A stretch of DNA of 64,000 bases from Octopus sinensis (taxonomy: Eukaryota), in contig NC_042997.1 in the NCBI RefSeq assembly GCF_006345805.1, forward strand, positions 99,200,001-99,264,000. Reading direction: 5' to 3'. The position numbers and the translations under genes are program-made. Under the pieces are notes generated by a model. It saw only the letters and a list, made by a program, of their open reading frames with translations. It ran no database searches and had not been told where the DNA came from. Below, one piece after another: positions 3,815 to 50,764 of the stretch. Position 1 is the stretch's first letter. Every line of letters begins with the position of its first letter.

Positions 3815-4048
3815 GTTAAGGCCGGTTACTGATGAGAATTCGCCTAGCAAATTATCTTATTTGCTAAAGGAATTTGAAACCTAGGTATAACAGCAAAAAT
3901 TAACAAGGTAAAAGTTTTCATTTTTCATTTCCTTCGAAAATTGCTATTAAATGTGGTCGTGGTCGTTTTGGCTGCTTCTTCTAGCGTGTAAAAATTACTT
4001 GTTAAAGGGTAGTTTTCTCTTATGTTTCAATGTACACTATTTTATATT
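3815..4048 (+). mobile_element. Penelope-like pseudo-LTR fragment ending in (TA)n
   Basis: Carries a hammerhead, is homologous to 60730-60975 over ~230 bp, and ends at a TA microsatellite. Confidence 0.6.
3821..3894 (+). ncRNA. Type I hammerhead ribozyme motif in a Penelope-type terminal repeat
   Basis: Stem I gtta/taac; CTGATGA 3829-3835; extended stem II gaattc..tagcaaa/tttgcta..gaattt; GAAA 3876-3879; palindromic stem III ACCTAGGT; cleavage triplet GTA 3885-3887. Confidence 0.75.
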
Positions 4049-12600: not shown

Positions 12601-13370
12601 AATCCTTTCTACTACAGGCACAAGACCTGAAATTTGGGAGAAGGGAGTAGTCGATTACATCGACCTCAGTAGTCAACTGGTACTTAATTCATTGACCCCG
12701 AAAGGATGAAAGGCAAAGTCAAACTCGGCGGAATTTGTACTCCCAACGTAAAGACGGACGAAATGCCGCTAAGCATTTTGTCCGGCGTACTAACGATACA
12801 GGCAACTCACCGACTTATTAATAATGGTAATCTTTTCCACTAAAGGTACAATGCCTGAATTTTGTGAGGAGGAGATTTGTTGATTAAATTGTCCCCAGTG
12901 TTTCACTGGTACTTAATTTATCGACCCCGCAAGGATGAAAGGTGAAGTCAATCTCGGCAGAATTTGAACTCAGAATGTAGCGACGGGCGAAATACCTATT
13001 TCTTTACTACCCACAAGGGGCTAAACACAGAGAGGACAAACAAGGACAGACAAACGGATTATGTCGATTATATCGACCCCAGTGCATAACTGGTACTTAT
13101 TTAATTGACCCCGAAAGGATGAAAGGCAAAGTTGATCTCGGCAAAATTTGAACTCAGAATGTAAAGACAGAAGAGATACCTATTTCTATTTCTTTACTAC
13201 CCACAAGGAGCTAAACACAGAGAGGACAAACAAGGACAGACAAACGGATTAAGTCGATTATATCGACCCCAGTGCGTAACTGGTACATATTTAATCGATC
13301 CTGAAGGATGAAAGGTAAAGTCGACCTCGGCGGAATTTGAACTCAGAACGTAACGGCAGGTCGCCGCCTT
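12601..13370 (-). mobile_element. Cluster of four SINE family A units, partly as a concatemer
   Basis: Repeated gaccccgaaaggatgaaaggcaaagtcgacctcggcggaatttgaactcagaac; gaaatacc|tatttcttt-type junctions at ~12993 and ~13178. Confidence 0.9.
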
Positions 13371-14002: not shown

Positions 14003-14964
14003 GCGGCGAGTTGGCAGAAACGTTAGCACGCCGGGCGAAATGCGTAGCCGTATTTCGTCTACCGTTACGTTCTGAGTTCAAATTCCGCCGAGGTCGACTT
14101 TGTCTTTCATCCTTTCGGGGTGGATAAATTAAGTACCAGTTACGCACTGGGGTCGGTGTAATCGGCTTAATCCGTTTGTCTGTCATTGTTTGTCCTCTCT
14201 GTGTTTAGCCCCTTGTAGATAGTAAAGAAATAGGTATTTCGTCTGTCGTTACGTTGTGAGTTCAAATTCCGCCGAGGTTGACTTTGCCTTTCATCCTTTC
14301 GGGGTCGATAAATTAAGTACCAGTTACGCACTGAGGTCGATCTAATCGACTTAATCCGTTTGTTTGTCCTTGTTTGTCTGTGTTTAGCCCCTTGTGTGTA
14401 GTAAAGAAATAGGTATTTCGTCTGTCGTTACGTTCTGAGTTCAAATTCCGCCTAGGTCGACTTTGCCTTTCATCCTTTCGGGGTCGATAAATTAAGTACC
14501 AGTTACGCACTGGGGTCGGTGTAATCGACTTAATCCGTTTGTCTGTCATTGTTTGTCCTCTCTGTGTTTAGCCCCTTGTAGATAGTAAAGAAATAGGTAT
14601 TTCGTCTGCCGTTACGTTGTGAGTTCAAATTCCGCCGAGGTTGACTTTGCCTTTCATCCACTCGGGGGTCGATAAATTAAGTACCATTTACGCACTGAGG
14701 TCGATCTAATCGACTTAATCCGTTTGTCTGTCCTTGTTTGTCCTCTCTGTGTTTAGCCCCTTGTGGGTAGTAAAGAAATAGGTATTTCGTCTGTAGTTAC
14801 GTTCTGAGCTCAAATTCCGCCGAGGTTGACTTTGCCTTTCATCCTTTCGGGGTCGATAAATAAATTACCAGTTTCGCACTGGGGTCGATGTAATCGACTT
14901 AATCCCTTTGTCTATCCTTGTTTCTCCCCTCTATGTTTAACCCCTTGTGGGCAATAAAGAAATA
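14003..14964 (+). mobile_element. SINE family A concatemer: one head plus five tandem ~180-185-bp bodies, flanked by a ~20-bp TSD
   Basis: Bodies restart at gtatttcgtc near 14050, 14234, 14413, 14597 and 14782. B box GTTCAAAT. The core gactttgcctttcatcctttcggggtcgataaattaagtacc resembles the Deu/Nin domain (recalled). TSD atatatagttatacaaaaa(a)ga at 13981 and ~14964. Confidence 0.92.
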
Positions 14965-21273: not shown

Positions 21274-23461
21274 GGAGAGGAAAAAAAACAAATGATCAAT
21301 AGGGATCGTTATCACAGAAATGTCAATATGAAGTGTAAAGGGGAGGACAGGTCAGGTTTACCCGTGGAAAGAAAAGCCTGCGGAAAAGACCACGGTAACC
21401 TCGGTCAATGAAGTCACATTTTATATTTCTTTTTTTTTTTTTTTTTTTTTTGCAAATAAGCAACTCTCTGTTTTCGATTTCTGGGTTCATAGGACTATGC
21501 TCAAGGTGGCTTCGTCATTCATACGTGCCATTCTTGCTACATTCACCCATCTTTTTTTAAAACATCGCTAGACAAAACTTGCCTCTCTACTCTCACTTTC
21601 CTTTTCAAGTGGTACTTGAAGAGTTGATGAGAGATTGACCAGAGAGGAAAGTGTTTGTCTCCAATCCTTTCAGACGCGTCCACCAGATACATTCTTTCGT
21701 TTCCCACAAGGATGATGAAAATAGCTTTCCTTCCCGTTTGAAGGAAGGAGGCGTGACAATATTGACGATAGACTCAGCTGATAAACCGACTCGTCCCACA
21801 CGTGACAGCAGTTGTTCACATAAGCCCACAGGTCGGAAATTGTTGACACTGAACGAGTGCGTGCAGAACGGTTTCGTCGCTCTGACCGCATCTCGGGCAG
21901 GTCGGCCCCGTGTTTCTCGAGCCGTGTCTGTAGAGCTTATCCCGAACGGGTAGCGCTTCTCGGTTAGCACTGCCAGGCCAGGGATCTCTGGAAGTTGTCC
22001 ATGGGCCCTGGCCCGAAGTCGTCCCGAACAGGCGGGTCAGGTACTCCTCGTCGACGTCCAGGTTCGCCCCGAGCTCGTCGTCGTACCTCCCCTCCACTAA
22101 ACCCCTATAGAATGCTTTGGTTGTGTTGAAGTCACTTAAGGTCGACCCAGGACGGCAGAGTTGCTTGAGAGCAACGCGACACTCGCGGTGCCATTCGCCC
22201 TCCTCGCCTCTTTTTGATCCACGACTGCAGTTCGGTCATGGAGACGAGCTGCGGGAAAGCGTGCCTCACAAACGGCGAACCACACCTGTTCACCGTCGTC
22301 TACATAGAGCCAGAGATGTCGCAGTCTCAGCGCGTGTCTGCGCATCATCAACCACGGCATGCCCAGCCCTCCTTTTAACGGGTGTTGACAGCAAATGGAT
22401 CGCCTGACCATCGGGACGCATCCTTTCCACAAGAAGCGAAAGAGGATGCGTTGTAGTTTGGTGATGGTAGGGTCGGGACAAGGTACGACGGTCAGGCGGT
22501 AGTAGATGACGGACGCGATTTACGTGTTCGTCACCTCCGCTCGACCTTTTAGGGACAGTTTCCTCTCGGCCCATTGCCGGGCGAGAGTGACCACCCTACT
22601 CGTTATCTCGTTCCAGTTCTTCTCCACTTGGAGTCCGGACCAACCAGACCCCGAGCAACTCAACCGGGCCGTCGGTCCAGCGTCCCACGACGGAGGCGCT
22701 GGTGGACGGCATGGGCTTGCTTCTTCCAGGTGCCTAGTCGCAAGCCCACTGACTTTTCCGGTTGATTTTCGCTCCTGTCACCGCTTCGTAGTTTTTCAGT
22801 GTCTCGCCGACCAGCTCGATGTGCTCGTGGCTAGACACTATGACGGTGACGTCGTCCGCGTATGCAGACACGCTCGTCCCGCATCCCAATTCTCGCGGGA
22901 TGCCCCTTAGAGTCGCCAGCTTCCGCCGCAGTAGTGGCTCAAGAGTCAATACGTATAGAAGCGCCGAGAGGGGGCATCCCTGACGGACCGAACGTGCAAT
23001 GTCGAAAGGTCTCGATAGATGTCCATTTACGCGAATTACCGAACGGATGCCTCTGTACAAGGCAGCTATCCAGCCGCGGAAGACGGGACCGAAACCAGCC
23101 GCTCTCAGGACTGCCTCCAAGTATCGATGGTCCTACCCTATCAAAGGCTTTTGATTGATCCAAGTTGATCAGGGCCCCACCCATGCCAGGTTCGTTAACT
23201 ACCCTGTCTATGATGTAGCGCATCAGATGGAGGTTTTCATGGATGGTCCGGCCTGGCACGGCGCATGTTTGCGCCTTGTCGACCAGTTTCTCGATGACAA
23301 GCGCCAACCTCTTGGCTAGCACCTTGGCCAAAATTTTCAAGTCTGCATTAAGCAGAGTGATGGGCCTAAAGTTATCTATTACATTTCCTTGTTTAGATCT
23401 TTCTTCAGCAGTGTTACGGCTCCTCGGCTCACAAAACCAGGAATGCTCCCGTTTTGCTGCC
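21076..23461 (-). mobile_element. 5'-truncated Tx1/L1-clade LINE (RT, CCHC finger, 3'UTR) embedded in (GATA)n
   Basis: [61 protein letters not shown] and CPRCGQSDETVLHALVQC. Stop at ~21487. GC-rich with several frameshifts. (TAGA)n on both sides. Confidence 0.93.
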
Positions 23462-27749: not shown

Positions 27750-28490
27750 TAACGGATTTCAAGTAGAAGCAACGTTCTGTCATGTAGTTTTTAACAAAGG
27801 AGAGATGTAGGATAGCTGACCTACTCAGAAGGCTATCGATTTGTTTCAAAAAGTGGTACCATTAACAAGAGCAGTGCGCATAGATGGATGGAAACATTTT
27901 AAAAAGGGGAAAGAGTATTGACGGGATACTACACAAAAGGAGACCAATGACACGCAGCGAGTGGACGAATTGATTCGCGTGGGCAAATGAGTCACAATCC
28001 ATGAACTTCTTCCGCTATTACACCGAGGTCACAATGTATTACAGACCATGGTGGAAGACTTAGGACTTCGGAAAATGTGTGAAACGTGGGTATCTTGGCA
28101 GTTGATACCAGATGCAAAATAGAGAAGGCTGGAACTCTGCTCTGATCTACTTGAAGCGTTTGAAGACAAAAATTTTTGTTCCGATCTGGTTATACGACGT
28201 GGAATAAGGGCATATGTGCAGGATTCGGAAAGATCCATAGAAAAGCACCATACAACTTTTCTAAAGCCTCAGAAATTCAAGATCCACCGATTTTCAGAGA
28301 AAGTTTTCGTGACTGCTTTTTGTGATTACAAAGGCGTCATTCTCCTTCATTTTCTGAAAAGTGATTCAACTGTCAACAGCGAGCTGTAGAGGAGGACACT
28401 CAAAAAGCGTAAAGAAGACATTAAAAGAAAGAAGCAAAACAAGAATCGGAAATTGATCCGCGTTCACCGTGACAATGCGTGACAACACGC
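27750..28490 (+). mobile_element. Mariner transposase remnant
   Basis: KQRSVM.FL, GLRKMCETWVSWQL (WVPxxL motif), KVFVTAFCDYKGVILLHFLKSDSTVNS and HRDNA*QH (HDNARPH), with stops. Confidence 0.8.
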
Positions 28491-28590
28491 AGGCTATCAG
28501 TAAATTGAGCTGCCCAGTGATCACACACATACACATGCGCGCACGTGAACATAACAAAAACACGTACATATGTAAATATATATATATATA

Positions 28591-28622
<32 letters not shown>

Positions 28623-28793
28623 ATAAATATTAGGGAATAAATCCAAATTTACAGGGAAAAAATCAGATTTATGATTAAATCGATTTATAGTAAAATATTA
28701 TAAAATATTATTCGAGACAAAACCACTATTTTGCAAAACAAACAAGGAAAGACTATTAATACATAAAATTTTAATAAATAGTCAAAAAAACCG

Positions 28794-28836
28794 CCACTAC
28801 AATCGTTTCTTGTCTTGATCGACAATCTTCAGGTGG
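28794..28836 (-). ncRNA. Minimal type I hammerhead ribozyme motif
   Basis: Minus strand: CCAC-CTGAAGA-TTGTC-gatcaa-GACAA-GAAA-C-gatt-GTA-GTGG. Confidence 0.8.
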
Positions 28837-29289
28837 ACTTCCAATCTAAAAAATCAATATTTTAAAATATAAAAATAATAATTTTAAAATAATTAAAGTA
28901 TGAATGAAAAAATATAAGTATATAATCCATATATAACCTATCTATAATCCATATATAAACAATATATAAACAATATAAACTAAAAAAACCTATCAACAAT
29001 TAAATATAAAATATAAAATATAAAATATAAAATATAAAATATAAAACAAAACAAAAAAAATAATAATATAATAATAAACTATATATACACCCATACGCAT
29101 ATACCTAATTATATATAACCATATCTAACTACATACACTAAATCACACACCTATATATATATCCCTATACATACACATAAAAATGTCTAGGCAACTATAA
29201 ATAAATAAAATAGCTAAATACTTCAACACAATACTATTCATACTCCCACACACACACACATACAACCCACATTCACGCTCTAGAAAACG

Positions 29290-32200
29290 GACATCACTCA
29301 AAACTATGAACGGAGAAATGGAATAAATGGAATTAAAAATTATATACACTTGGTAAAAACAACACTACTTAAAAATTATGAATGAAACAATGCAATAAAA
29401 CAACAGACATCGCAATATACACAAATTACTACAAATTCCTTATCAAACCTACCATGATAACCAAAATTCATAAAAACATATAATGATAAAATCTCCCTTT
29501 ACTAAACTCTATAACAAACCTATATAGCAATCCCCCTAACCTAAACATTCACACACGTAAACCACACACCCACGACATATACAAATACCCACACCACTTA
29601 CACATACCAATACATACATATAAACCTCAACATATACTCCAAAAACCCACTCAACCCCACACAGACAAATAAACACAAAAATTATGAATGGATTCATTTA
29701 TAAAACTACCATGATAATCTAAAACTCACAAAACAGAAATGATAAAACCTCCCTTTACTAAACACTAAAACATACTTATATAGCAATTCTTTTAACCTAT
29801 ACATTCACACACCAACCCACTCGTAAACCACACACCCATAACAAATACAAACTCCCACCCCACTCACACACACCCACAAGTACATATAAGCCTCAACATA
29901 TACACCAAACAAAATTACTTTACCAAGGAACTTAACATATATATAAAAAGTATAACCGCTCTGGAAACGAACATCTCTAAATTAATGAATGGAGAAATGG
30001 AATAAATGGAATTAAAAATAAAATTCACGTGGCAAAACGAACACCACTCAAAAATTATGAATGAAACAATATAATAAAACAACCAACATCGAAAATAGAC
30101 AAATTACTACGAATTCCCTAAAAAAACCATGATAAACCAAAACTCTTAAAAAACATATAACGATAAAATCTCCCTTTGCTAAACTCTATAACAAACCTAT
30201 ATAGTAATCCCCCTAACCTAAACATTCACACACAAACACACACGTAAACCACATACCCACGACTTATACACATACGTAAACTAACTTATAAACCTCCATA
30301 TACACCAAAACCCACTCCCTCCCACACAGACAAATTAACTCATACATCCCAAAACCTAAATAACAAACCCATATACACATTCACACACAAACACACACAC
30401 ACGCAAAACACACAAACACAACATATACATATACTCCCTCACATATACGCATATACATACTCACTAAACTCAATATATACAACATATTTACACACCCACA
30501 CTCATACAGATAAATAAATTATACAACTAAAAACTCGCACACAATCTCATATACATAAACACTCCTATGAAAACAACATTAAATACATCGTAATTAACCA
30601 GAATATCAAAATAACAATATGACATAAAGGTAAATAAAATACATACTTACAATTCAGTGTCAAATTATGAAGTGAAATTAAATTCTTAGCCGTTAAAAAA
30701 TCAAACCAAAATTACGTTACCATAGAAATAACTTATGTAAAAAAAGACTAACAATCAACTTACAGTAACCCAAACCCATTCTCTATGCCTACCTCACTAC
30801 TACACTATTCCATTCACAATTCCAAACAACGCTAGTCCACCTCCCGGTTATTCACGTGGCAAAACGAACACCACTCAAAAATTATGAATGAAACAATGTA
30901 ATAAAACAACCAACATCGAAAATAGACAAATTACCACGAATTCCCTAAAAAAACCATGATAAACCAAAACTCCTAAAAACATATAACGATAAATCTCCCT
31001 TTGCTAAACTCTATAACAAACCTATATAGCAATCTCCCTAACCTAAACATTCACACACAAATACACACTCGTAAACCACAGACCCACTACTTATACACAT
31101 ACCTATACTAATTTATAAACCTCAATATACACCAAAACCCACTCCCTCCCACACAGACAAATTAACACATACATCCCAAACCTAAATAACAAACCCATAT
31201 ACACATTCACACACAAACACACACACACGCAAAACACACACACACAACAGATACATATACTCCCTCACATATACGCATATACATACTCACTAAACTCGAT
31301 ATATACAACAATATTTACACACCCACACTCATACAGATAAATAAATTATACAACTAAAAAACTCGCACACAATCTCATATACATAAACACACCTATGAAA
31401 ACAACATTAAATACATCGTAATTACCAGAATATCAAAATAACAATATGACATAAGGATAAATAAAATACATACTTACAATTCAGTGTCAAATTATGAAGT
31501 GAAATTAAATTCTTAGCCGTTAAAAAAATCAAAGCAAAATTACGTTACCATAGAAATAACTTATGTAAAAAAAGAATACGCGCCATGGAAAGTAAACGTC
31601 ATTTAAATTATGAATGGAGAAATAGGAAAATGGAACTAAAAACTATATCCACGTGGCAAACCAACACTACTTAAAAAAACTTTTATTATGAATGGATTCT
31701 TTAAAAAACTACCATTAAAAATCATTATATACATCTATGAACTTTAGCTCACCTTAGCATCTCTAACAAACAACTTGCAGTAACCCAAACCCATTCTCTA
31801 TGCCTACCTCACTACTACACTATTCCATTCACAATTCCAAGCAACGCTAGTCCACCACCCGGTTATTCACGTGGCAAAACTAACACCACTCAAAAATTAT
31901 GAATGAAATAATGTAATAAAACAACCAACATCGAAAATAGACAAATTACCACGAATTCCCTAAAATAACCATGATAAACCAAAACTCATAAAAACATATA
32001 ACGATAAAATCTCCCTTTGCTAAACTCTATAACAAACCTATATAGTAATCCCCCTAAACATTCACACACAAATACACACTCGTAAACCACAATCCACGAC
32101 TTATACACATACCTATCCTAATTTATAAACCTCAATATACACCAAAACCCACTCCCTCCCACACAGACAAATTAACACATACATCCCAAACCTAAATAAC

Positions 32201-32875
32201 AACCCATATACACATTCACACACAAACACACACACACACAAAAAACACACACACACACAGATACATATACTCCCTCACATATACTCATATATATACTCAC
32301 TAAACTCGATATATACAACAATATTTACACACCCACACTCATACAGATAAATAAAATATACAACTAAAAACTCACACACAATCTCATATACATAAAACTC
32401 CTATGAAAACAACATTAAATACATCGTAATTAACCAGAATATCAAAATAACAATATGACATAAGGATAAATAAAATACATACTACAAGTCAATTTCAAAT
32501 AATGAAGTGAAATTAAATTCTTAGCCGTTAAAAAAACCAAACCAAAATTACGTTACCATAGAAATAACTTATGTAAAAAAAAGAGAGAATACACGCCATA
32601 GAAATTAAACGTCATTTAAATTATGAATGGAGAAATAGAATAAATGGAACTAAAACTATATCCACGTAGCAAACCAACTCTACGTAAAAAAATTTATAAT
32701 GAATGGATTCTTTAAAAAACTACCATGAAAAACCATTATATACATTTATGAGCTTAACTCACCCTATCAGCTCTAACAAACAACCTACAGCAACCCAAAC
32801 CTATTCCCGATACCTACCTCACTACCACACTAATCAATTCCCAATTCCAAGCAACGCTAGTCCACCACCCGGTTA
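29290..32875. repeat. Four tandem C/A-rich, G-poor units of ~0.7-1.0 kb
   Basis: cacgtggcaaaac(g/t)aacaccactcaaaaattatgaatgaaa at ~30026, 30853 and 31868, with a diverged copy at ~29347. atgaatggagaaat..aaatggaa at ~29305, 29984, 31610 and 32623. Confidence 0.9.
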
Positions 32876-32984
32876 CAATTCCCAACTCCACCCATTAATT
32901 CACAATTTCAACGACATTCGCCTCCACAACGCTACATATAAGCCTCAACATATACACCGGAGATACACTTACACATCCATGCGG

Positions 32985-33480
32985 ATGGGTGAGAGTATAC
33001 ATTGAGTGTAATGATGGGGCTCTCATTACTATACACATTTGTACCTATGTGGTAGTCTCCATGTGTATATTACGCACGGGTATAAATAACTGCAGGGGGT
33101 ACACGCGCACGTCGTTTACGTGTACCCCTCACATGTACATATGCATGCTATTTGGGCTCGATATATGCAACAATGTAATCGCGCCCGCATACATGCATAT
33201 GGGCGAATTGCACAATCAAAAAACGCACACGTGTGTGTGTGCGTTCCCTAGTTGTGCAATTCACCCATCTGGGTGTGAGTGGGTGTAATCTTATCACTAT
33301 GGATGTCAAGCTTAATACGTATTTATATAAGTATGTATTAGGGGGTTGTACGTATTAATTGTGTACATGTGCTTCACGCACTTACGTCCATATATGGATG
33401 AATATATTGGGATTACTATGTGGGTGTAAATTGGGTATGGAGGGGGGAATTTTGTCATTGTATGGGTGTGGGTTTCATTT
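32985..33480 (+). other. ~500-nt imperfect hairpin centred at ~33234, rich in G.U pairs on the + strand
   Basis: atgggcgaattgcacaa pairs with ttgtgcaattcacccat. 33039-33066 pairs with 33402-33429 (17 Watson-Crick, 10 G.U, 1 mismatch, counted by hand). Confidence 0.8.
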
Positions 33481-33819
33481 ATGATAGTGGTTAGTTGGTG
33501 ATTTTTAGTATGTTCTATATATTTGGGTTAGTTATGTATTATTCTAAAGTGTATAATTGTATACATATAGTTTGTGTGAATGGGATTACGCCCATTTTTG
33601 GGGATGTATGTGTTTATTTATCCATGTGGGGCGGGAGTGGCCGTTAGGTGTATATGCCGAGGCTCACATGCAATTCCAGGTATTGTTTATATATTGTTTA
33701 TATATGGATTATAGATAGGTTATATATGGATTATATACTTATATTTTTTCATTCATACTTTAATTATTTTAAAATTATTATTTTTATATTTTAAAATATT
33801 GATTTTTTAGATTGGAAGT

Positions 33820-33862
33820 CCACCTGAAGATTGTCGATCAAGACAAGAAACGATTGTAGTGG
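33820..33862 (+). ncRNA. Minimal type I hammerhead ribozyme motif
   Basis: Stem I CCAC/GTGG; CTGAAGA 33824-33830; stem II TTGTC/GACAA; GAAA 33847-33850; stem III AC-gatt-GT; predicted cleavage after A33858. Confidence 0.8.
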
Positions 33863-34369
33863 CGGTTTTTTTGACTATTTATTAAAATTTTATGTATTAA
33901 TTAGTCTTTCCTTGTTTGTTTTGCAAAATAGTGGTTTTGTCTCGAATAATATTTTATATATATATATATATATATATTATATATTATATATTATATATTA
34001 CATATTATATATTATATATATGAGATGTCTTGGGATCCAGAACCCAAAATGCAGGAAAGGTTATGTAATTGCTACGGAAGGACCGTTGTTAAACTCTCGG
34101 TTCAATAATAGCATGAGTGAGGAATCTAAGACAGGTAGTGTGTGAGCGTGTATATGTTAGATAAAGTAACATAACAAGGCCAAGGCAATTTGATATTCCT
34201 ATGACATTTATAAATAGAAAGGTGGTCTTACAGTTTTTTTCAGGAAAAAAATGATATCCCATCATCAGAGACGAGTTAACAGAGCTTCAGTAGAAAGAAT
34301 TAGTAGAGTTCGTTTCTTTTCAGAGTTATTCTGGAGAGGGAGAGATATACACGTATCCGGACGATATAA

Positions 34370-35259: not shown

Positions 35260-36693
35260 CAATGTGGTATCAAACGGTTCCCGGAGTAGTTATGTTTAAC
35301 AAACAAATAACTTATTTATCTAAGTTTTAACATCATCCCCTTCGAAGTAGTCTTCTTGCGCAGCAATACACCGGTTCCAGCGATCCAGCCACTTTTGGAA
35401 TCCGGCCTGAAAGTCGTTTACTGTAAGTGAGTCGAGTATCTTCTGCGATTTTCTCTGGATCTCGACAACGATGTTAAAACGGCGATCTTTGAGCTGCATT
35501 TTTACATTGGGGAAGAGGTGCTAATCTGTAGGTGTTAAATCTGGCAAATGGGATGGGTGCCGAAGCAAAACCATGCTGTTTTTGGTGTGAAACTCACGAT
35601 TGAGGAGAGCTCGTGAAGAATTCAATTCTTCGCAAACCATAGATCCGGTCGCTTTCGCCGAATGTCCTCCCTCAAAGCTTCCAAATATCGTGATAGAAAT
35701 CTCGATTGACGGTTTGACCCTTGGAAAAGAATTCTCGATGCACAATACAGCGTATGTCGAAAAATCAATGAGGATGCTCTTGATTGAACTGCGGTCGTGA
35801 AGATGAAGGGTTCTTCCATTGTGACAGCTACTGCTTCGTCTCAGGGTCTTACCCGTAGACCCAACTCGCGTCACCGGTAATGATCCTCGATAGATTTCGA
35901 CGCGATATTCCTTCTGTTCAGAGGAACAAACTTCGTAGATACACGCCACTTGTTCAATTCAGACGTTACGATTGCCTACATGGACACATACGGCTGACCA
36001 ACAACGGTTCTCATGCACAAGCTGATGAATTTTCTCCACATTTGCGGGGGTAACGCTCGTGGCAGGTCTTACAGATCGCTCATCGTCTTTGAGGAACTTT
36101 CTCCTGCTCTTGAAGCGCCAGTACCCCTCGAAACATTGTTGTTTTTTGGCGAAAAACTCACGAGTGAGAAGAGCTCAGCAACAGGATGTATTTTCATCGT
36201 GAAGAATCCAATTCCTCACGCTCCACAGATCCCGTTGTCTTTCACCGAATGTCCTCCCTTAAAACGCTTCAAGACGTCGCAGAAGAACTCTCGATCGACG
36301 GTCTGGTTCTGGGAGAAGAATTCTCAATGCACAATACCACATTTTCAGGGATCACGTTCGTGGCAGGTCTTTCAGATCACTCATCTTCTTCCAATGACGT
36401 TCTTTCGCTTTTGAAGTGCCCGTGCCACTCGTAACATTGCGTTCGACCTATTGCCTAGTCGCCGTAAACTTGCCAAAGCATGCTGAATGTCTCTGTTTTA
36501 CACGCTGGCTCTTTGTTCTGTCTATGACAAAAATCGCAGACTACAGCATACACGTGATCGCAAAAACACAAATTTCACAACCTGCGATGTAAACACAGCG
36601 GTGTCACTCGGCGCACTGCCTCATGAAAATCACTGTGCTGCCACCTGTTGGCGCACTATAGAACTAGTCCGGGAACTTTTTGATGCAACCGCG
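35260..36693 (-). mobile_element. Mariner DNA transposon, decayed, with TIRs and TA duplication
   Basis: TIRs atcaaacggttcccggagtagtt / aactagtccgggaactttttgat; TA at 35258-59 and 36694-95. LREDIRRKRPDLW, HPSHLPDLTPTD (YSPDL motif) and WLDRWNRCIAAQEDYFEGD. Internal duplication 36140-36340 vs 35580-35750. Confidence 0.9.
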
Positions 36694-50569: not shown

Positions 50570-50764
50570 TTGACGAAATGTGAAATGGAAAAGTGCAAAT
50601 AACGAAAGGGATTCTAATATATTTTATAACTGCACATGCAAAACGTATTATAGGCAGTGGTTAGAGTTGACGAAATGTGAAATGGAAAAGTGCAAATAAC
50701 GAAAGGGATTCTAATATATTTTATAACTGCACATGCAAAACGTATTATAGGCAGTGGTTAGAGT
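50570..50764. repeat. Perfect 97-bp tandem duplication
   Basis: ttgacgaaatgtg...ggcagtggttagag starts at 50570 and again at 50667. Confidence 0.92.

Follow-up and report, generated by a model that had tools for sequence, protein, structure and literature searches.

Does a 5.3-kb non-coding element with a complete hammerhead ribozyme core at each of its inverted ends represent a mobile RNA in its own right, or is it what a larger retrotransposon left behind? The question is raised by a 64,000-nt stretch of the Octopus sinensis genome (NCBI RefSeq assembly GCF_006345805.1, contig NC_042997.1, positions 99,200,001 to 99,264,000; the window, whose numbering is used here), where such an element lies in a (TA)n microsatellite. 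The initial annotation took it for a recent non-autonomous Penelope-like or retrozyme-like element, with structured RNA as its cargo and a viroid-like ambisense organisation. We report that it is very probably a truncated insertion, devoid of an open reading frame (ORF), of an autonomous ~8-kb Penelope-like element (PLE) with Hydra-clade motifs, in which a sense copy of 5.05 kb and an inverted copy of 278 nt meet at their truncated ends in the TA microsatellite, likely after a cut of both strands and the priming of two cDNAs at two fixed sites along the RNA. The link to PLEs, the recency and the co-occurrence of ends and interior as a family hold, while the non-autonomy, the retrozyme identity and the viroid-like ambisense organisation do not.

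The genome (2.7 Gb) was searched for relatives, and the loci analysed are the top-scoring matches rather than a random sample. With the left end as query, 40 of 40 scored matches were 97-100% identical (1773 candidates), and 38 stretches around matches have a common 3' end and varied stop points on the 5' side. In the fetched copies interior and ends co-occur, and the autonomous PLE sharing the end, for which the initial annotation had suggested looking, was found; its ORF begins just beyond the truncation point of the window copy. Specifically, all eight copies examined past position 33682 (seven loci) continue with one and the same sequence into an ORF on the window minus strand, and loci L028, L049, L055 and L062, which are 97% identical to the window sense copy over 5.0-5.1 kb, run on into the ORF, the sense copy in the window being cut ~0.35 kb after the stop codon. 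The unit of the youngest subfamily is ~8.0 kb and comprises an ORF of ~2.5 kb, a 3' region of ~5.3 kb, the hammerhead and a tail; in older subfamilies it is ~4.9 kb. What had been read as RNA cargo corresponds to the 3' untranslated region (UTR) of the autonomous element. The window copy differs from its nearest relatives by 0.6-1.9% substitutions, in keeping with the recent insertion proposed earlier. Copies also form partial tandems (pseudo-long terminal repeats): 15 of 102 ends read through into the ORF, and each of 30 ORF starts is preceded by the 3' end of another copy. Four copies (L041, L042, L043 and L050) have an identical truncation point (30680) and at least three of them share a flanking frame, for which reason they are probably duplicated segments, not independent insertions.

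That the relatives run into an ORF of the reverse transcriptase (RT)/GIY-YIG type bears out the PLE link. At L059 the natural frame, which a protein search brought to light, has 859 codons (722 amino acids from the first ATG), and its predicted protein contains LYRDD and VVY...YIG motifs and has 69 homologues at E≤1e-3; one named homologue is an Octopus bimaculoides model that covers 14% of the query. The family protein agrees motif by motif, as judged by eye, with the published alignment of the Hydra clade (Craig et al. 2021, PMC8557442; comparisons with this and the other papers cited refer to their accessible parts), which is defined there by RWK, DKT, a CxCX5C linker, lack of CCHH, C-terminal CxxC and CxH, canonical hammerheads and (TA)n targets. 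Likewise, the octopus family has a single ORF, DKT in place of DKG (present as SDKTRN), a CxCX5C linker (CTCRDKSNC), no CCHH, no CxxC within the GIY-YIG core, CxxC and CxH near the C-terminus in the surroundings of conserved E and N residues (CYLC and CRH; CRN in L059), a hammerhead near the 3' end and (TA)n targets. It differs from the clade in its length of ~8 kb, in a 3' region of 2.3-5.3 kb with tandem units and a long G.U hairpin, and in an Asn-rich insert of ~80-90 amino acids; moreover, its hammerhead and protein sequences are unlike those of Hydra-1_Obim. The insert (residues ~330-415 in L059) is Asn/Lys-rich and of low complexity, lies between the RT thumb region and the linker and is absent in most homologues, and most frame breaks of ORF copies fall in it. 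Judged by its sequence, membership among the endonuclease-bearing (EN+) PLEs applies to the relatives and not to the window copy itself.

Several points weigh against an autonomous Hydra-type source. An open frame of >800 amino acids is present in one of 127 scored candidates, that copy lacks a natural N-terminus, and most ORF copies are frame-broken. The N-terminal RWK reads KWK (RIKWK) in the family protein, with RW(K/R/I) in homologues. Pfam finds no family in the L059 protein and nothing significant in pieces of the ORF, while the GIY-YIG family was matched by two of 14 aligned proteins (best E 0.0005; one inspected score was below the curated cut-off), and PDB sequence searches gave nothing significant. 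The assignment to the Hydra clade is a motif-based one.

Seen against this family, the element in the window can be resolved into the following parts (coordinates, strand, description).

28568..28619, no strand: (TA)n target microsatellite on the left; the array reaches 28630
28620..33682, minus: very probably a 5'-truncated sense copy of the ~8-kb Hydra-type Penelope-like element, 3' non-coding region only
28620..28694, minus: "tail", the extension present at the long end only; left boundary approximate because the sequence is AT-rich
28794..28836, minus: predicted type I hammerhead motif on the sense strand, with cleavage predicted to follow the A at 28798
29276..32875, minus: G/U-rich tandem array (sense strand G 0.25, T 0.46, C 0.06)
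32750..33682, plus: inverted ~1-kb hairpin module, apex 33230-33237; boundaries approximate, ~45 nt removed by the truncation
33681..33682, no strand: junction of the two copies, with a 2-nt overlap (TA)
33681..33958, plus: inverted, 5'-truncated, tail-less second copy of the 3' end of the element (278 nt, from the alignment of the arms)
33820..33862, plus: duplicate hammerhead motif in the inverted copy, predicted cut after A33858
33955..34021, no strand: (TA)n target microsatellite on the right (TA array)

Over 278 nt the inverted arms (28699-28975 and 33681-33958) show 99.6% identity and a single 1-nt gap, and TA arrays are present on both sides, as the initial annotation had noticed; also its two complete, outward-pointing hammerhead cores are real, identical in sequence and the only cores within the element. 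Two details needed correction. The left end is at ~28620 and not 28632, because the family sequence continues as AATATTTATTAT up to the left TA array, and the arms are not equivalent since the left one is longer by an extension of ~65-75 nt that is absent from the right arm. In tandem copies this tail continues into the ORF start ~55-65 nt further on. Between the arms, tandem units and a hairpin were confirmed, and likewise the lack of an RT or endonuclease ORF: five overlapping frames of at least 80 amino acids (87-129 amino acids, stop to stop) are low-complexity or non-coding. The tandem array has three cores of ~730 nt that are 94-96% alike (30023-30750, 30850-31578 and 31865-32581) in addition to older partial units; the units are spaced 0.83-1.0 kb apart and none has a hammerhead. 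Eight loci constitute a side lineage (L133, L145, L148, L150, L152 and L153, also L067 and L068) with a fixed deletion that joins the repeat array to position 28966.

The genome contains a single instance of the fold-back junction (within two mismatches), which indicates that the 5.3-kb fold-back form was never itself copied. How such forms arise can be read from the ends of other copies. Among 102 distinct 3' ends, 46 are long, 41 short and 15 read through into the ORF; L078, one of the long ends, is probably a read-through of an older subfamily. As the loci are top matches, many of them picked by the long end, these proportions should not be read as frequencies in the genome. All 41 short ends and 44 of the 46 long ends are followed by TA-rich sequence. 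When two ends face outward (20 pairs), 16 pairs are long+short and four include a read-through end, with no long+long and no short+short pair; junctions and spans (155-8075 nt) differ in every pair. This long+short pairing is a published PLE footprint: the inverted 5'-truncated layout with a one-sided tail has been described for PLEs, and Penelope-13_HM has an inverted 5'-truncated copy with hammerheads on both strands (PMC8557442 and its supplement), while pairs of hammerheads on opposite strands have already been reported in Schistosoma (Cervera and de la Pena 2014, PMC4209133). The hammerhead of the family unit is confined to the sense strand, and the second polarity comes from the inverted duplicate with its unique junction, so the paired hammerheads are a known by-product of Penelope-like insertion rather than an ambisense organisation.

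By analogy with the Anolis carolinensis Poseidon element PAc, we infer that the RT-endonuclease of the element would cut both target strands within a TA microsatellite, and that two cDNAs would be primed from two fixed start sites ~65-75 nt apart on the RNA and then joined at their truncated ends; initiation would be internal, on read-through RNA, with uncut RNA as the main template. In vitro, the PAc protein cuts and extends both target strands, two internal start sites define its tail, and the RNA copied is mainly uncut (Frangieh et al. 2024, PMC11167929). The two systems are alike in having two RT start sites that define an optional tail and in AT-rich targets, and they differ in that PAc belongs to another clade and has a tail of 30-40 bp inside the ORF, compared with ~65-75 nt ending upstream of the ATG here. 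The upstream sequence of 27 of 30 ORF starts extends past the hammerhead, one starts at the predicted cut site and two after it, which agrees with internal initiation on uncut RNA. Moreover, insertions end 100 or ~178 nt beyond the predicted cleavage site, suggesting that the copied RNA was not cut there.

Of the other explanations for the fold-back, the one that survives best is that proposed originally, i.e. a separate 5.3-kb non-autonomous fold-back element or retrozyme that would be copied as a whole, carry structured RNA and use its ribozymes in both polarities. The window copy is non-coding and has a complete core in each arm, and ORF-less copies likely outnumber coding ones (searches gave 1773 and 924 first-look candidates with the end, 591 with the hairpin and 349 with the ORF start). 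However, the uniqueness of the junction largely refutes it, the interior aligns colinearly with the UTR of copies that have the ORF, and junctions and spans are particular to each pair; we consider it very unlikely. Retrozyme identity was also tried as such and rejected: the element has two cores, the tandem units none, and it is colinear with a coding element. The non-LTR (long terminal repeat) retrozymes of animals (bioRxiv 10.64898/2026.07.22.740005) resemble the window copy in having a type I hammerhead, a PLE origin and no protein, but are described as tandem units of 51-972 bp each with a hammerhead, far below the size found here, whereas the octopus family is coding and its units lack hammerheads.

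Even less probable is an inversion generated by fold-back during assembly. Alignments to relatives have 20-145 gap bases each with many small indels, typical of long-read consensus error, and the junction was seen only once. Yet it is not palindromic, as it links 33682 to sequence copied from 28975, at a distance of 4.7 kb; the two flanks are unlike each other, the end of the inverted arm coincides with the second fixed end of the family, and long+short pairs with other junctions are present at 15 further loci. Finally, a fold-back DNA transposon or an element resembling miniature inverted-repeat transposable elements, as the 278-nt near-perfect inverted ends at a TA site and a mariner-type remnant to the left might suggest, can practically be dismissed given that the ends are unequal, arm lengths vary among copies, most copies are truncated at the 5' side and the ends run into an RT-type ORF.

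The hammerhead itself, with its GUA ending at A33858 in the plus-strand copy, has a helix I of 4 bp, a helix II with an extra base after A9 and a short self-complementary helix III, a layout that matches the table of Hydra hammerheads in the PMC8557442 supplement; its cleavage is a prediction. Rfam returned four weak matches at E≤1 with no hammerhead among them, and the monomer folds no better than shuffled sequences (z 0.05, 0.40 and -0.27), both as expected because helix III is very short. Variation among subfamilies keeps the helices: position 7 varies, helix II changes yet stays paired, and helix III, being ACGATTGT, ACAATTGT or ACGATCGT, stays self-complementary. On these sequence comparisons the predicted motif appears to be conserved as a structure. 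Short helix I, the extra base after position 9 and a palindromic helix III suited to dimers are shared with the minimal type I hammerheads of metazoan PLEs, and the self-complementary helix III suits the dimer model put forward for them (PMC4209133). A difference from these minimal motifs is seen in older subfamilies, where the hammerheads (L073:5556-5635 and L075:5275-5375) have helix II regions of ~45-70 nt; in L075 the hammerhead is ~600 nt from the end compared with ~110 usually.

The length of the 3' region has its own history. In an RT tree of 25 copies the distance from stop codon to end is 2.3-2.6 kb in the outer branches, then 2.9-3.5 kb (5.1 kb in L071), and in the inner branches 4.9 kb (L063), 2.9-3.1 kb, 3.6 kb and then 4.5-5.3 kb in the subfamily of the window copy. 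Growth from 2.3 to 5.3 kb thus took place by duplication of G/U-rich units along a ladder-like lineage and was not monotonic. Inverted repeats at the DNA level in the UTRs of L063, L069, L071, L075 and L078 were TA-rich low-complexity pairs among the five longest listed per locus. Mouse L1 elements have promoters made of tandem monomers, and by analogy the units could act like these, because the 3' region also precedes the ORF in tandem copies. None of the 24 listed sequencing runs that contain the sequence is recorded as RNA. Contigs of one DNA run and of three presumed RNA runs span, in pieces, the ORF of L060 and the greater part of its UTR, without strand or level information. None of the 15 contig joints shown (26 in all) has GT..AG ends, and A>G/T>C differences are no commoner in the presumed RNA runs than in the DNA run, a result compatible with either presence or absence of splicing and of editing. 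At L060:7340-7365 (about window position 29280) many run contigs join other sequences, which suggests a short segment common to other repeats.

What the hairpin in this UTR represents is a second question. A 994-bp module is inverted between L063-type copies (n=4) and the lineage leading to the window (n=28); four of these 32 copies, shorter than 780 nt, were left out of the module tree. On the sense strand of L063-type copies a stem of 299 bp is predicted, with 185 Watson-Crick and 114 G.U pairs, ~20 mismatches and a longest Watson-Crick run of 12 bp. In this orientation the sense strand folds at -395.7 kcal/mol (z -20) and the antisense strand at -143 kcal/mol (z -4). The older subfamilies L069-L073, which serve as outgroups, have the 3' arm only, in the L063 orientation, which suggests that the 5' arm is a later inverted duplicate and that the L063 orientation is ancestral; L074 and L078 have neither arm. 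The near-complete copies among the 28 inverted ones form a ladder in which the old strand goes from 105 down to 65 G.U pairs and the new strand from 9 up to 39, with folding energy shifting accordingly. In the window the old G.U-rich stem is now on the antisense (+) strand, for which folding remains more favourable (z -6.3, against z -4.7 for the sense strand). The module of L068 is the most altered seen. Taken together, a G/U-rich repeat unit was likely duplicated in inverted form to give the hairpin, and the new arm would then have changed A>G and C>U, by which complementarity at the DNA level becomes G.U pairing restricted to the RNA strand; the later 994-bp inversion would have moved the module to the other strand, with the one-way drift now acting on the new sense strand.

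This drift is directly visible in the changes fixed between the inversion and the youngest clade. Counted along the new sense strand, they comprise 23 A>G, 11 A>T, 43 C>T and 10 C>A, i.e. 87 of 531 A/C sites compared with 0 of 206 G/T sites (p 8e-14). The lineage with ancestral orientation, read along its sense strand, also drifts toward G/U (20 C>T and 2 T>C). Third positions of the ORF in older branches show no asymmetry (A>G 9/428, T>C 23/900, p 0.70), and the ORF end on the same branch shows A>G 1/294 and T>C 3/259. Copy-private changes are symmetric as well (p 0.56 and 1.0), which indicates that the bias arises in the replicating lineage. A drift toward G/U that is confined to the UTR is therefore well supported. 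We infer three possible causes: selection on the RNA for a G/U-rich, C-poor 3' UTR is the most likely, in our judgement on an evenly balanced footing; editing or deamination directed to the UTR and fixed by reverse transcription is a weaker possibility; and a mutation bias acting on the whole element seems improbable. ADAR enzymes have neighbour preferences, and a test based on them found 0/20 changes after a 5' G and 22/251 otherwise (p 0.39), and 0/14 before a 3' G; C>T changes are not known to result from ADAR activity.

More tentatively, the genomic copies may record evolution at the level of RNA, with strong selection or targeted editing for a G/U-rich 3' UTR and for a G.U-wobble duplex of ~300 bp that is hardly visible as a DNA inverted repeat; after the 1-kb inversion, successive subfamilies would have rewritten the duplex on the new sense strand, possibly through host ADAR edits fixed by reverse transcription. 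The competing view, to which we attach considerable though less than even weight, is that the G.U stem is a side effect of neutral evolution: whenever a G/U-rich repeat is duplicated in inverted form and mutation on the sense strand is biased toward A>G and C>T, the arms remain paired in RNA, and no function has to be assumed for either stem or drift. The arm compositions (5' arm C74 A61 G80 T84; 3' arm T131 G118 A40 C10) fit its arithmetic, the 5' arm is absent from older subfamilies, and the lineage prospered after the stem had moved to the antisense strand. Other observations likewise weigh against the RNA-level reading. Stem mismatches are not clearly fewer than neutral drift would leave. 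Former G.U sites were not repaired faster, A>G having occurred at 14/101 of them and at 8/88 Watson-Crick pairs (p 0.37) and C>T at 18/101 and 11/74 (p 0.68), and compensatory repair of the stem is thus unsupported. A>G is as frequent in the non-inverted repeat (11/149 vs 23/286, p 0.85), a control that may suffer from aligned paralogous units, and the ORF control was drawn from older branches than the UTR count. On the other hand, neutrality does not readily account for a bias confined to the UTR, where T>C is 0/457 compared with 23/900 at ORF third positions, nor for four-fold sites that are not G-rich (G12, C11, T89, A52). Moreover, G/T sites are more static in the module than in the repeat control (0/206 vs 16/505, p 0.005), and within the module A>G is concentrated in the stem (22/189 vs 1/97, p 0.001).

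Elsewhere in the window, just left of the insertion (28123-28500), there is a mariner-type transposase remnant (Pfam Transposase_1, E 0.0014, below cut-off), and 35521-35958 on the minus strand, without a Pfam match, is presumably a second one judging by its motif. Two hammerhead-like cores of another family, mutually similar and with a longer helix II, are located at 3829 (+) and 60743 (+). A GC-rich stretch at 21608-23132 (-) has frames resembling the RT of long interspersed nuclear elements, and its VRQGCPLS motif is taken by us as a mark of these. Arrays of 184-190-nt repeats are present in opposite orientations at 12882-13353 (2.5 copies) and 14050-14964 (five copies), and 50570-50764 is an exact tandem duplication of 97 nt.

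In the accessible parts of PMC8557442 the 27 listed Hydra families span 1080-3045 bp, and the clade is generally below 3 kb, given there as a descriptive trait; the octopus family is 2-3 times longer than any of them. A literature search, with most subscription papers outside its reach, found no report of a Hydra element with a long UTR or of a retrotransposon in which a G.U hairpin had switched strands. A consensus of the family may already be present in Repbase, Dfam or the library behind PMC13282606, a study that counts 31 recently active Penelope-like families in Octopus vulgaris, undescribed in its accessible passages.

What is new here is an oversized Hydra-type family with an informative UTR history, the fold-back insertion footprint being already known. 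Hammerheads in both polarities are an ordinary footprint of Penelope-like insertion and no viroid-like biology is needed to explain them; in a family of this size, truncated copies resemble non-coding fold-back elements and will be mis-annotated. The UTR constitutes a natural experiment, with a dated ladder of subfamilies before and after an inversion and a strand-specific, UTR-confined bias that originates in the course of retrotransposition rather than once copies have been inserted. Should the cause prove to be selection on RNA structure, or editing that reverse transcription then fixed, the family would give a direct handle on the RNA features that PLEs need for copying, and on how the editing of a host shapes the transposons within it.

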